Shown here piece by piece: positions 4,470 through 14,876 of a DNA stretch of 64,000 bases. A program made the position numbers and the translations under genes. The stretch lies in NCBI GenBank assembly GCA_965204575.1, contig OZ241993.1, positions 1,632,001 through 1,696,000 on the forward strand, in the 5' to 3' direction. This DNA comes from an uncultured candidatus Porisulfidus sp. (GTDB taxonomy: Bacteria > Pseudomonadota > Gammaproteobacteria > Poriferisulfidales > Poriferisulfidaceae). Within the stretch, counting starts at the first letter, position 1. Every line of letters begins with the position of its first letter. The notes beneath the pieces were generated by a model that was given only the letters and a program-made list of their open reading frames with translations, did not search any database and was not told where the DNA came from.

Positions 4470-5780
4470 TTATCGCAGGAGGCTGCGGGAGCGCATGCCC
4501 CGCGCCTCGGCTTTCTTCAGCAGCCCTTCGTACTGGTGCGACATCAGGTGCGTCTGCAGCTGGGCAATGAAATCCATCACCACCACCACGATGATCAGCA
4601 GCGAAGTCCCGCCGAAATAAAACGGAACGCTCAGGCCTAGGATCAGGAACTCGGGCAGCAAGCACACGAACACGATGTACATCGCGCCGACCGCGGTCAG
4701 GCGGGTCATCACGGTGTCGATGTAGCGGGCCGTCTGCGCGCCCGGGCGGATGCCCGGGATGAATGCGCCGGAGCGCTTCAGGTTGTCCGCGGTGTCCTTG
4801 GAATCGTACACCAGCGCGGTATAGAAGAAACAGAAGAACGCGATGGCGACCGCATAGAACAGCACGTACAGCGGCTGCCCCGGCCCCAAGGTAGCCGACA
4901 GGTCGCGCAACCAGCCCATGCCTTCGGCCGTGCCGGCCCATTGCCCGAACGTGGCCGGGAACAGGATGATGCTGGAGGCGAAGATCGGCGGGATGACGCC
5001 GGCCATGTTGAGCTTGAACGGCAGGTGCGTCGACTGCATGGCGACATGCCGGCCCTGCTGCTGTCGGGCATAGTTGACCGTGATGCGGCGCTGCCCGCGT
5101 TCGATGAACACGACGAACGCGGTGATGGCCAGAACCAGGGCAAACAGGAGCACCACCAGCGCGGACGACAGTTCGCCGGTGCTGGCCAGCTCCAGGGTGC
5201 CACCGACTGCGGTCGGCAGACCGGCGACGATGCTGGTGAAGATGATCAGCGAGATTCCGTTGCCGATGCCGCGCTCCGTGATCTGCTCGCCGAGCCACAT
5301 CAGGAACATGGTCCCCGTCACCAAGGTGATGATGGCGGTGACCGCGAAGCCGTAGCCGGTGTAAAGCGCGATGCCCTGGCTTTGCAGCGCCACCGACACG
5401 CCGCCGGCCTGGAACGTGGCCAGGGCCAGGGTGCCGTAACGCGTGTACTGGGTGATCTGCCGCCGCCCCTGCTCCCCTTCCTTGCGCAATTCCTTGAGGC
5501 TCGGGATCACGGCGGTCATCAACTGCATGATGATCGCGGACGAGATGTACGGCATGATGCCCAGCGCCAGGATGCTGAGGCGCTCCAGCGCACCGCCCGA
5601 GAACATGTTGAACAAGTCGATGATGGTGCCGCTTTGCTGTTCGAAGAAGCGGGCCAGCGCACTGGGGTCCACGCCCGGCACCGGAATGTAGGTCCCGATG
5701 CGATAGACGATCAACGCGCCCACCACGAACAGGAGGCGTTGGCGCAACTCGGAGAACGGCGAGGCTTTGGGAGGCGCCAC
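4470..5780 (-). CDS. secY: Preprotein translocase subunit SecY
   Basis: [16 protein letters not shown]; [17 protein letters not shown]; IPGIRPG; FGGTSLLI. Confidence 0.98.
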
Positions 5781-12752: not shown

Positions 12753-12756
<4 letters not shown>

Positions 12757-13217
12757 GCCCCGATCTCCGCGCCTTCGATGGTCTGCCCGGGCGCAAGCCG
12801 CACATAGGCCTTGCTCCAGTCACTGCGGCGACCCCGGCGCTTGACCTTGCCGCGGACGTTGGCCACCCGCACGCCATCAACCTTTACGTCGAACATCGTC
12901 TCCACCGCATGCTTGACTTCGTCGCGGGTCGCGTCCGTCTTCACCTCGAAGACATGCTGCTCGCTTTCCGCCAGGCGCACCGATTTCTCGGACATCCGGG
13001 CACCCAGGATCACCTGGCTCAGGCGTTCTTCGCTGGGCTTCTTGGCGACGGCCGGGGCGGGTTTCGGCTTGGCCGGCTTCGCCGGAACGGCCTCGGCTTT
13101 CTTCGCCGCAGCCGGCTTGGCCTCAGCCTCCGGCTTGTCAATCTTCTTGACTTCCTCGGCGGGCGCCTCCTTCGGCTTGCCCCTGAAGAGACTCTTGATC
13201 TTTCCGAACATGCTCAT
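12753..13217 (-). CDS. rplW: 50S ribosomal protein L23 with ~60-aa N-terminal extension
   Basis: Core [35 protein letters not shown]; start ATG overlaps the rplD stop (ATGA at 13214-13217). Confidence 0.93.
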
Positions 13218-13837
13218 GACGCCGCACCCCCCAGGCGTTGTTCCAGAAGGCTCAGCGCCGACCGGGTCACCAGCACATGTTCGTATCGCAGCAGCGATAC
13301 CGGATCCACTGCGTTCACTTCGCAGGCATCGTAGTTCGGCAGATTGCGGACGGCCAGGAATACGTTCGGCTCCATGCGCTCGACCAGGATCAGGACGCTG
13401 GTCAGGCCGAGCCCCTCAAGTTTCTCGCGCGCAAGCCGGGTCTTCGGCTCCGGCAGATCGAACGATTCCACGACGTGCAGGCGTTCCTGGCGCAGCAGTT
13501 CGGAGAAGATCGAACGCATCGCGTGGCGGTACATCTTCTTGTTCAGCTTGGCGTTGTACGTGCGATTGGTCGCCGGGTGCGTCACACCCCCGCCGCGCCA
13601 GATCGGCGAGCGGATGCTTCCGGCCCGGGCTCGCCCGGTGCCTTTCTGGCGCCAGGGCTTGGCGCCGCCGCCACGGACCGCGGCGCGATTCTTCTGCGCG
13701 GATGTCCCCTGGCGGCCCCGCTGCGCGTAGGTCACCACCGCCTGGTGAATCAGCGCCTCGTGAAATGCCACGCCAAAGCACTCGTCTGCGACGGTCACGG
13801 CAGCCTGGGTATCGCGGGTCTTCAGTTCCATGTCCAT
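13214..13837 (-). CDS. rplD: 50S ribosomal protein L4
   Basis: KPWRQKGTGRARAGSIRSPIWRGGG; start at 13837 or 13831. Confidence 0.97.
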   Translation of the reverse strand: MDMELKTRDTQAAVTVADECFGVAFHEALIHQAVVTYAQRGRQGTSAQKNRAAVRGGGAKPWRQKGTGRARAGSIRSPIWRGGGVTHPATNRTYNAKLNKKMYRHAMRSIFSELLRQERLHVVESFDLPEPKTRLAREKLEGLGLTSVLILVERMEPNVFLAVRNLPNYDACEVNAVDPVSLLRYEHVLVTRSALSLLEQRLGGAAS

Positions 13838-14483: not shown

Positions 14484-14876
14484 TTACTTGAGCTGGACAT
14501 TGATGCCGGCGGGCAGGTCCAGCTTCATCAACGCGTCCACCGTCTTCTCGGAGGGGTTGATGATGTCGATCATGCGTTTGTGGGTGCGGATTTCGTACTG
14601 GTCACGCGCATCCTTGTCGACATGCGGGGAAATCAGCACGGTAAATCGCTCCATCCGGGTCGGCAGCGGGATCGGCCCGTGCACCTGGGCTCCGGTGCGC
14701 CGCGCCGTCTCGACGATCTCTTTCGCCGACTGGTCCACCAGCCGGTGGTCGAACGCCTTCAACCGCAGCCGCAGGCTGCTGTAGCGGCCCTTCCCTTTCT
14801 TCGGTGCAGCCGAAACCGCTTCGGATACCGCAGTTTCCGTTTTCGGTTGGCGGGCTTTTTTCTTTGGAGCGGCCAT
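14484..14876 (-). CDS. rpsJ: 30S ribosomal protein S10 with ~27-aa basic N-terminal extension
   Basis: [16 protein letters not shown]; GPIPLPT; [11 protein letters not shown]. Confidence 0.96.

Follow-up and report, generated by a model that had tools for sequence, protein, structure and literature searches.

What does a ribosomal protein at the rim of the polypeptide exit tunnel gain from some 62 residues placed upstream of its canonical core? The question is raised by the rplW gene, which encodes uL23, in a 64,000-nucleotide stretch of the genome of a Candidatus Porisulfidus, a sponge-associated gammaproteobacterium whose genus has genomes of 1.4-2.0 Mb. The stretch, called the window throughout, is C1:1632001-1696000 of genome G000, a single contig of 1,816,663 bp that is 98.75% complete, has 60% GC and contains no N. 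The uL23 core lies at the tunnel-exit rim and is the docking site for the signal recognition particle (SRP), trigger factor, SecA and SecYEG; ribosomes dock on the SecY translocon via uL23, uL24 and uL29. Start-site conservation, coding signatures and substitution patterns show that the uL23 extension of Porisulfidus is a translated, selectively maintained module of three parts, a basic amphipathic peptide, a Lys-Pro-Lys hinge and a spacer. We suggest, with a confidence that falls a little short of an even chance, that this module serves as a membrane tether at the tunnel exit, working like the lipid-binding N-terminus and disordered A domain of the SRP receptor FtsY.

The uL23 extension is translated and selectively maintained

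The encoded protein matches the Pfam family Ribosomal_L23 (PF00276) over residues 68-148 (E 1.5e-24; 86.7 bits against a cut-off of 30.8), and its gene sits in the minus-strand order uS10-uL3-uL4-uL23-uL2-uS19, within an S10-spc-alpha cluster that continues via secY to rplQ. E77 and K78 of the SEK loop, whose Glu is known from E. coli to be used by trigger factor, are invariant across 69 aligned sequences.

The original prediction, drawn from the window before any comparison, held that the extension must be translated, both because the uL23 ATG overlaps the rplD stop as ATGA and because no other start codon lies near the canonical start. The overlap is borne out by the coordinates of the ATG (13217-13215) and of the TGA (13216-13214). 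The second argument stands for codons 4-68, which contain no ATG, GTG or TTG, and fails just beyond them, where a GTG occurs at codon 69 (13013) and an ATG at codon 75. Both of these lie within the conserved core and neither has a Shine-Dalgarno-like (GGAGG-like) site. Initiation at codon 69 is very unlikely because this codon is inside the conserved domain and lacks such a site, and because R65 and V69 are invariant in 47/47 aligned homologues, with L66 nearly so (44/47).

The signals for initiation at the upstream ATG are conserved. A Shine-Dalgarno-like G-run or GGGAGG lies 9 nucleotides upstream of the start in all 14 genus loci parsed (several relatives have GGGAGG in place of GGGGGG), and the overlap is ATGA in 13 of them and GTGA in one. 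A fifteenth, more divergent locus (L015) has an ATG with a weak GGAA site only. The extension has a third-codon-position GC content of 0.85 and the core one of 0.82, and changes of extension length among homologues are in frame. The ratio of nonsynonymous to synonymous substitution rates (dN/dS) is below 1 in 7 of the 8 computable pairs for the spacer and in 6 of 7 for the peptide; in close-to-intermediate pairs it is 0.10-0.63 for the peptide and 0.18-0.69 for the spacer, alongside 0.10-0.25 for the core. The conserved overlap and ribosome binding site, the third-position GC, the mostly low dN/dS and the in-frame length changes thus uphold the prediction that the extension is translated. Two plus-strand open reading frames (ORFs) that cross the uL23 region match no Pfam family and lie over conserved genes for ribosomal proteins; we regard them as spurious artefacts of high GC.

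Within the genus the extension is a constant feature: of 16 genomes, 15 yielded a uL23 gene, and all 15 genes carry it; the remaining genome, with a completeness of 76%, yielded no uL23 match. No such extension was found in any of the ten further genera of the order, in a set of 53 genomes in total. There are two sequence types, one of which begins MKNPFAWLGRLFGRKPKPE, and more divergent types that include MSIKSRIGNLFGRKK. Core identity within the genus drops to 46-56%, yet the amphipathic start is retained in all 15 genes. A scan of 1.84 billion representative proteins recovered six 50%-identity clusters with an extension alignable to that of Porisulfidus, and all six have the amphipathic start. 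Other Gammaproteobacteria (P0050, P0063 and P0066-P0120, some named Steroidobacteraceae) carry uL23 N-terminal extensions of 35-60 residues that are rich in Lys, Ala and Pro; these have a conserved KKVVDIKDAPKK element and no amphipathic start.

At the level of sequence, the peptide has the amphipathic character of the putative short helix that the original prediction placed at residues 1-13. Residues 2-12 have a hydrophobic moment of 0.64, a mean hydrophobicity of 0.48 (Fauchere-Pliska scale) and a net charge of +3, and for each of the window lengths tried no other segment of the protein has a higher moment. When residues 2-13 were shuffled 20,000 times, just 3.8% of the shuffles attained this value. 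On a helix, M3, F4, I7, L10 and F11 would share one face, with Lys, Arg, Ser and Gly opposite, and the HeliQuest discriminant is 1.59, a value that we take to lie within the lipid-binding range. The pattern is kept genus-wide: the N-terminal 11-mer has a moment of at least 0.58 in 47 of 48 sequences (this uL23 and 47 homologues) and is the protein maximum in 45. Positions 4, 7, 10 and 11 are hydrophobic in 44-47 of the 47 homologues, Pro15 is present in 46 and Lys or Arg at position 14 in 45. The sequence of the peptide drifts while its amphipathicity is kept, MKNPFAWLGRLFGRKPKP being one divergent example, and in some homologues (P0018, P0025) the motif is duplicated rather than lost. A start of this kind is rare in the genome; only 14 of 3,798 crude ORFs combine an N-terminal moment of at least 0.60, a charge of at least +2 and a hydrophobicity of at least 0.3, and a loose regular expression and profiles of the extension match uL23 alone.

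Behind the peptide lies the linker that had been described as about 48 residues rich in Lys, Ala, Pro and Glu. It comprises 49 residues, 88% of them these four amino acids, with a net charge of +6 that includes 6 Glu and 1 Asp. AlphaFold2, run on an alignment of 69 sequences, predicts the uL23 core with high confidence (predicted local distance difference test score, pLDDT, 88-95) and the extension as disordered (pLDDT 41-59; spacer 41-57). Pfam has no domain in residues 1-62 at E<=0.1, and on this null and the predicted disorder a folded domain within the extension was rejected; an ESM Atlas search with the extension gave no usable match.

Table 1. Features of the uL23 locus and other genes of the window named in the text (positions within the window)
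Feature	Position	Strand	Basis or remark
rplW (uL23) coding sequence, extension included	12753-13217	minus	154 residues; ORF list; PF00276 match; between rplD and rplB
Shine-Dalgarno-like G-run (GGGGGG)	13227-13232	minus	9 nucleotides 5' of the uL23 start, within the rplD 3' end
uL23 codons 1-13, basic amphipathic N-terminal peptide	13179-13217	minus	putative hydrophobic face M3, F4, I7, L10, F11
uL23 codons 14-16, Lys-Pro-Lys hinge ending the putative helix	13170-13178	minus	homologue alignment
uL23 codons 14-62, Lys/Ala/Pro/Glu-rich spacer, predicted disordered	13032-13178	minus	composition, pLDDT, variable length
Canonical uL23 domain, residues 68-148, including the conserved SEK loop (E77)	12774-13016	minus	Pfam
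In-frame GTG, uL23 codon 69; sole conceivable internal start, judged unused	13011-13013	minus	codon list
rplD (uL4), stop overlapping the uL23 start	13214-13831	minus	PF00573, E 6.8e-67
secY	4470-5780	minus	ORF; homologues aligned
uS10	14484-14876	minus	130 residues; Pfam S10 domain from residue 36
bL17	1449-1877	minus	acidic C-terminal tail

The signal recognition particle in Porisulfidus and its relatives

The original prediction raised the question of whether ffh, ftsY and tig are altered in this genome. Neither Ffh, FtsY nor 4.5S RNA was found in it, and trigger factor (Tig) is present. In the complete genome an ftsY model search gave no match, an ffh model search no meaningful match, a search for the SRP54 GTPase domain P-loop fragments only (best E 0.004), and a 4.5S RNA model search no match at E<=1; tblastn with the FtsY proteins of relatives found nothing below E 0.1. 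The models used (TIGR00064, TIGR00959, PF00448 and RF00169) performed well on controls, the protein models being positive in 14/14 control genomes and the RNA model in 13/14, and they were also positive in the relatives that have an SRP. SecY, SecA and YidC are present along with trigger factor, and YidC stops soon after its last helix, without a long ribosome-binding tail.

The same searches covered 41 related genomes. The SRP54 domain and 4.5S RNA co-occur in the same three genera only (g5, 3/3; g7, 2/2; g10, 1/1), and neither was found in g1 (RNA 0/15), g2, g3, g4, g6 or g9, that is, in 6 of the 10 genera sampled. In g8 there was no 4.5S RNA and one sub-threshold SRP54 match only. The sole FtsY match within the genus is a fragment at the end of a 9.65-kb contig (L057; contig C50 of G011) in a 120-contig assembly. 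We do not count it as a genuine gene of the genus: the contig is probably mis-binned, because it has no nucleotide similarity to the complete genome and because G011 is without 4.5S RNA. Of 301 gammaproteobacterial species genomes, sampled evenly and each with a completeness of 90% or more, 286 contain the SRP54 domain. It was not found in the other 15, three of which belong to this order and one of which was scored in part only. SRP thus seems to have been lost in few of the gammaproteobacterial species sampled (about 4-5%), though not in this order alone. Our literature searches brought up no earlier account of such a loss in this group.

These comparisons also show what the loss does not explain. 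The genera g2, g3, g6 and g9, in which no SRP was found, have canonical uL23 of 98-102 residues, and their uL22, uL24 and uL29, whose N-terminal values are upper bounds taken from open frames, gave no firm sign of an extension. uL23 is likewise of canonical length in 12/12 other gammaproteobacterial genomes without an SRP54-family match (11 with no match at E<=0.001 and one with a single weak match); their uL23 open frames span 99-173 residues, and the longer frames have no upstream start. A general rule by which SRP loss leads to a uL23 extension was rejected on the strength of these genera and genomes, and so was the idea that other exit-site proteins or a tail on YidC compensate for the loss, given the lack of a firm uL22, uL24 or uL29 extension and the short YidC C-terminus. 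SRP loss thus accounts for the uL23 extension only in part, and the extension is no general consequence of it.

Some other ribosomal proteins of the window and its relatives also differ in length. uS10 has a basic N-terminal extension of about 30 residues without an amphipathic start; it is shared with G006, which represents the other sequence type of the genus, and is not present in g2, g3, g5, g6, g7 or g9. The acidic C-terminal tail of bL17, a protein located near the tunnel exit, is 8-18 residues longer than in eight relatives, G006 included. uL3 has a stop-defined C-terminal extension of 41-78 residues in g3, g6, g9 and g7 (L059/G017, L060/G022, L061/G034 and L063/G024) and not in g1, g2 or g5, a distribution unrelated to SRP status.

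A candidate membrane tether and its alternatives

The closest functional parallel that we see for the uL23 module is FtsY. For the E. coli protein, nuclear magnetic resonance shows lipid binding by the basic N-terminus and by the membrane-targeting sequence, and a tethering role at the translocon for the disordered A domain (PMC5094494). The uL23 module is built alike, with a basic hydrophobic peptide or amphipathic helix linked to a folded domain by a disordered, charged spacer. Many of the 18 gammaproteobacterial FtsY sequences that we sampled have a short hydrophobic-basic start that is separated from an amphipathic helix by a spacer of 20-55 residues rich in Pro, Glu, Ala and Lys. In 10 of the 18 the helix before the N domain has a moment of 0.56-0.66 with a charge of +2 or +3, and the C-terminal anchor of this genome's FtsA has a moment of 0.56 and a charge of +1, so that the uL23 peptide is comparable to both in moment and charge. 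Two differences stand out. First, the A domain of FtsY is acidic, whereas the spacer of uL23 has a net basic character; second, the module sits on a ribosomal protein rather than on a GTPase receptor, so no regulation by GTP is possible.

We claim functional likeness here and not descent. FtsY helices such as FFGRLKERLSR and LFGRLKAGLSK share a local motif with uL23 (LFGRLK in FtsY, MFGKIK in uL23), and the pattern [LMFIV]FG[KR][LIV]K occurs once, in uL23, among 2.36 million residues of six-frame ORFs and in 2 of the 18 FtsY helices, a pattern that was picked after seeing both sequences. Profiles of residues 1-62 and 1-20, searched with hmmsearch against 15,990 ORF segments and the 18 FtsY proteins, lifted no FtsY above noise (best E = 18, rank 30 of 1,697). 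An origin of the extension from ftsY was therefore rejected.

Similar peptides are familiar elsewhere. FtsA, MinD, SepF and MreB carry terminal helices, 10-15 residues long, whose hydrophobic face is bordered by Lys and Arg; in FtsA and SepF they are joined by a flexible linker. The uL23 peptide resembles them in its terminal position, length, high moment and positive charge, and resembles FtsA and SepF in its flexible linker. These proteins belong to the cytoskeleton or the division machinery and raise their affinity through polymerisation, whereas uL23 is ribosomal, and we know of no ribosomal protein that carries such a membrane-targeting helix. The FtsA of this genome has its typical C-terminal amphipathic peptide; full-length MinD was not found in the genome, in which only ParA-like P-loop fragments were seen.

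If the tether proposal is correct, the uL23 peptide would become helical on anionic phospholipid and lie in the plane of the membrane, in the manner of the lipid-binding segments found in FtsY, FtsA, MinD and SepF. With one uL23 copy per 50S subunit, ribosomes, and notably polysomes by avidity, would thereby gain an affinity for the inner membrane that is weak and reversible and that turns the exit site toward the membrane. The spacer, of which some 45 residues could reach up to about 130 Å when fully extended, would keep the ribosome tethered while it docks on SecYEG or YidC. In cells without Ffh, FtsY and 4.5S RNA, such a tether might make it likelier for a membrane protein to encounter SecYEG or YidC while it is still being translated. 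The module would then replace the membrane-tethering half of the job of FtsY, and not signal recognition, in parallel to mitoribosomes that are held on the inner membrane.

We consider this proposal plausible, and the missing SRP system lends it weight. Several points count against it. Membrane binding is a prediction from sequence, a single 12-residue helix would bind the membrane only weakly on its own, and amphipathic helices also mediate protein-protein and protein-RNA contacts. AlphaFold2 places a helix at residues 8-10 only, with a pLDDT of about 59 for residues 1-10. Membrane-targeting amphipathic helices often fold only on lipid, and a model of such low confidence would neither favour nor rule against a lipid-induced helix in the uL23 peptide. 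Because uL23 is canonical in other SRP-less lineages, the association between the extension and SRP loss rests on one event. Finally, in L001 versus L011, the most divergent genus pair with a computable value (dS being saturated in two other distant pairs), the dN/dS of the extension is 1.14-1.17; selection therefore maintains the pattern and character of the extension and not its exact sequence.

Other readings of the module have to be weighed against a membrane tether. It is possible, though in our judgement unlikely, that the peptide is a short linear motif on which an exit-site protein docks (SecA, SecY loops, YidC, trigger factor or another) and that the spacer is a fly-casting arm which recruits this partner, rather than lipid, to the ribosome. 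uL23 is the textbook platform for exit-site factors, SecA, SecY, YidC and Tig are all retained, and conserved hydrophobic positions together with an essentially invariant Lys-Pro-Lys hinge are as expected of a binding motif. The free variation of the sequence under constant amphipathicity and charge nevertheless suits lipid better than a specific protein interface, and no candidate partner was identified. It is improbable that the extension serves the ribosome itself, with spacer or peptide lying on 23S ribosomal RNA (rRNA) or on neighbouring proteins to aid stability or assembly in a reduced genome, or with the peptide plugging the exit tunnel of idle ribosomes, as has been reported for the N-terminal tail of the mitoribosomal protein mL45. 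Extensions of ribosomal proteins are common in reduced genomes, mostly without known function; uS10 of this genome has one too; and the L22 and L29 extensions of Mycoplasma pneumoniae touch peripheral rRNA in the cited passages (bioRxiv 10.1101/2021.12.18.473270). An RNA-binding tail, however, needs no four conserved hydrophobic positions on one face, the uS10 extension has no amphipathic start, the uL23 spacer with its Pro and Ala, 6 Glu and 1 Asp is atypical of rRNA-embedded tails, and AlphaFold2 shows no packing onto the uL23 core.

Nor do we favour the view that the extension is a tolerated low-complexity expansion without specific function, its N-terminal pattern kept by shared ancestry within one genus. 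The Lys/Ala/Pro-rich extensions that lack an amphipathic start in other Gammaproteobacteria, such as the hits named Steroidobacteraceae, and the dN/dS of about 1.1-1.2 in one distant pair would fit such an origin. It is made quite improbable by the persistence of the amphipathic start in all 15 genes despite the divergence of their cores, by a peptide dN/dS of 0.10-0.47 in intermediate-distance pairs, by duplication rather than loss of the motif in P0018 and P0025, and by a similar design that arose separately in Patescibacteria. That the extension is not translated, or is cleaved, we find scarcely credible. The in-frame GTG at codon 69 would allow a shorter product, but no Shine-Dalgarno-like site precedes it and the conserved R65 and L66 lie upstream of it, while the extension has a coding signature, is under purifying selection and follows a start with a conserved Shine-Dalgarno site.

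Parallels and significance

Mitoribosomes offer a counterpart of a ribosome held at a membrane. Most mitochondria are without an SRP, and the tethers mL45 of mammals and Mba1 of yeast are separate proteins with a Tim44-like fold. In the cited passages, these two and mL119 of Chlamydomonas hold the tunnel exit at the membrane beside the YidC homologue Oxa1 (PMC8998825), and some mitochondria are described as keeping Ffh and FtsY (PMC8662606). Whereas the mitoribosome tethers are separate proteins that bind Oxa1, the candidate tether of Porisulfidus is an unstructured extension of uL23, in which Pfam detects no Tim44-like domain. In its fullest form our proposal would be that Porisulfidus ribosomes carry an FtsY-like anchor of their own: after the loss of Ffh, FtsY and 4.5S RNA, the uL23 peptide and spacer would hold the tunnel exit at the inner membrane, and SecYEG and YidC would capture nascent membrane proteins without a targeting particle, as a bacterial counterpart of the membrane-tethered mitoribosome. 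We offer this larger scheme as a speculation and regard it, taken as a whole, as doubtful. Cells without an SRP may also cope by other routes; in two E. coli studies the SRP was reportedly bypassed through slower translation or through targeting of mRNA.

Extensions around the tunnel exit have a precedent in the reduced genome of M. pneumoniae, where L22, L23 and L29 are extended and disruption affects fitness; the cited passages call such ribosomal extensions widespread and of unknown function (bioRxiv 10.1101/2021.12.18.473270). Unlike those of Porisulfidus, these extensions are given no amphipathic membrane-like terminus and no link to SRP loss in the reported passages (bioRxiv 10.1101/2021.12.18.473270). 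The uL23 tail can be seen as a variant of two known kinds of element, a ribosomal protein extension and, putatively, a terminal membrane-targeting helix. Our literature searches turned up no bacterial uL23 described as carrying a membrane anchor.

A second case comes from Patescibacteria (P0228, P0299-P0417; L080), in many of which uL23 has 50-85 extra residues that start MG[ILF][LF][DN][KR][FL]K and continue in a Lys/Glu-rich spacer. Among the best 150 representatives, 27 have at least 40 residues ahead of the S/TEK motif, one set of them with this start, and in the P0228 search the same holds for 70 of 120 among the matches listed, with Doudnabacteria, Parcubacteria and Patescibacteria among the names. 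These proteins share with Porisulfidus uL23 a short hydrophobic-basic N-terminal motif and a charged spacer; they differ in that the motif is another and a shorter one and the spacer far richer in Lys. A similar design arose separately here, and its recurrence suggests that a hydrophobic-basic peptide on a charged spacer at the uL23 N-terminus does something useful at the tunnel exit. We found no description of the patescibacterial extension in the literature, and its conservation is noteworthy by itself.

The SRP and its receptor are regarded as a near-universal need for the insertion of membrane proteins, and life without them is known mainly from mitochondria and laboratory suppressors. Apparent SRP loss across much of this order, and in a small fraction of the gammaproteobacterial species sampled, is noteworthy in its own right. 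In Porisulfidus it takes the form of natural, complete genomes in which SRP was not found and which hold a conserved, ribosome-borne candidate for part of the answer. If the uL23 tail does bind membranes, this uL23 would be the first bacterial ribosomal protein known to us that carries its own membrane anchor, a case convergent with the tethering of mitoribosomes, and the tail could provide a simple, portable tag for placing ribosomes at membranes. Moreover, with the parallel in Patescibacteria, membrane anchors borne by ribosomes would then be a solution that recurs among small symbiotic cells.

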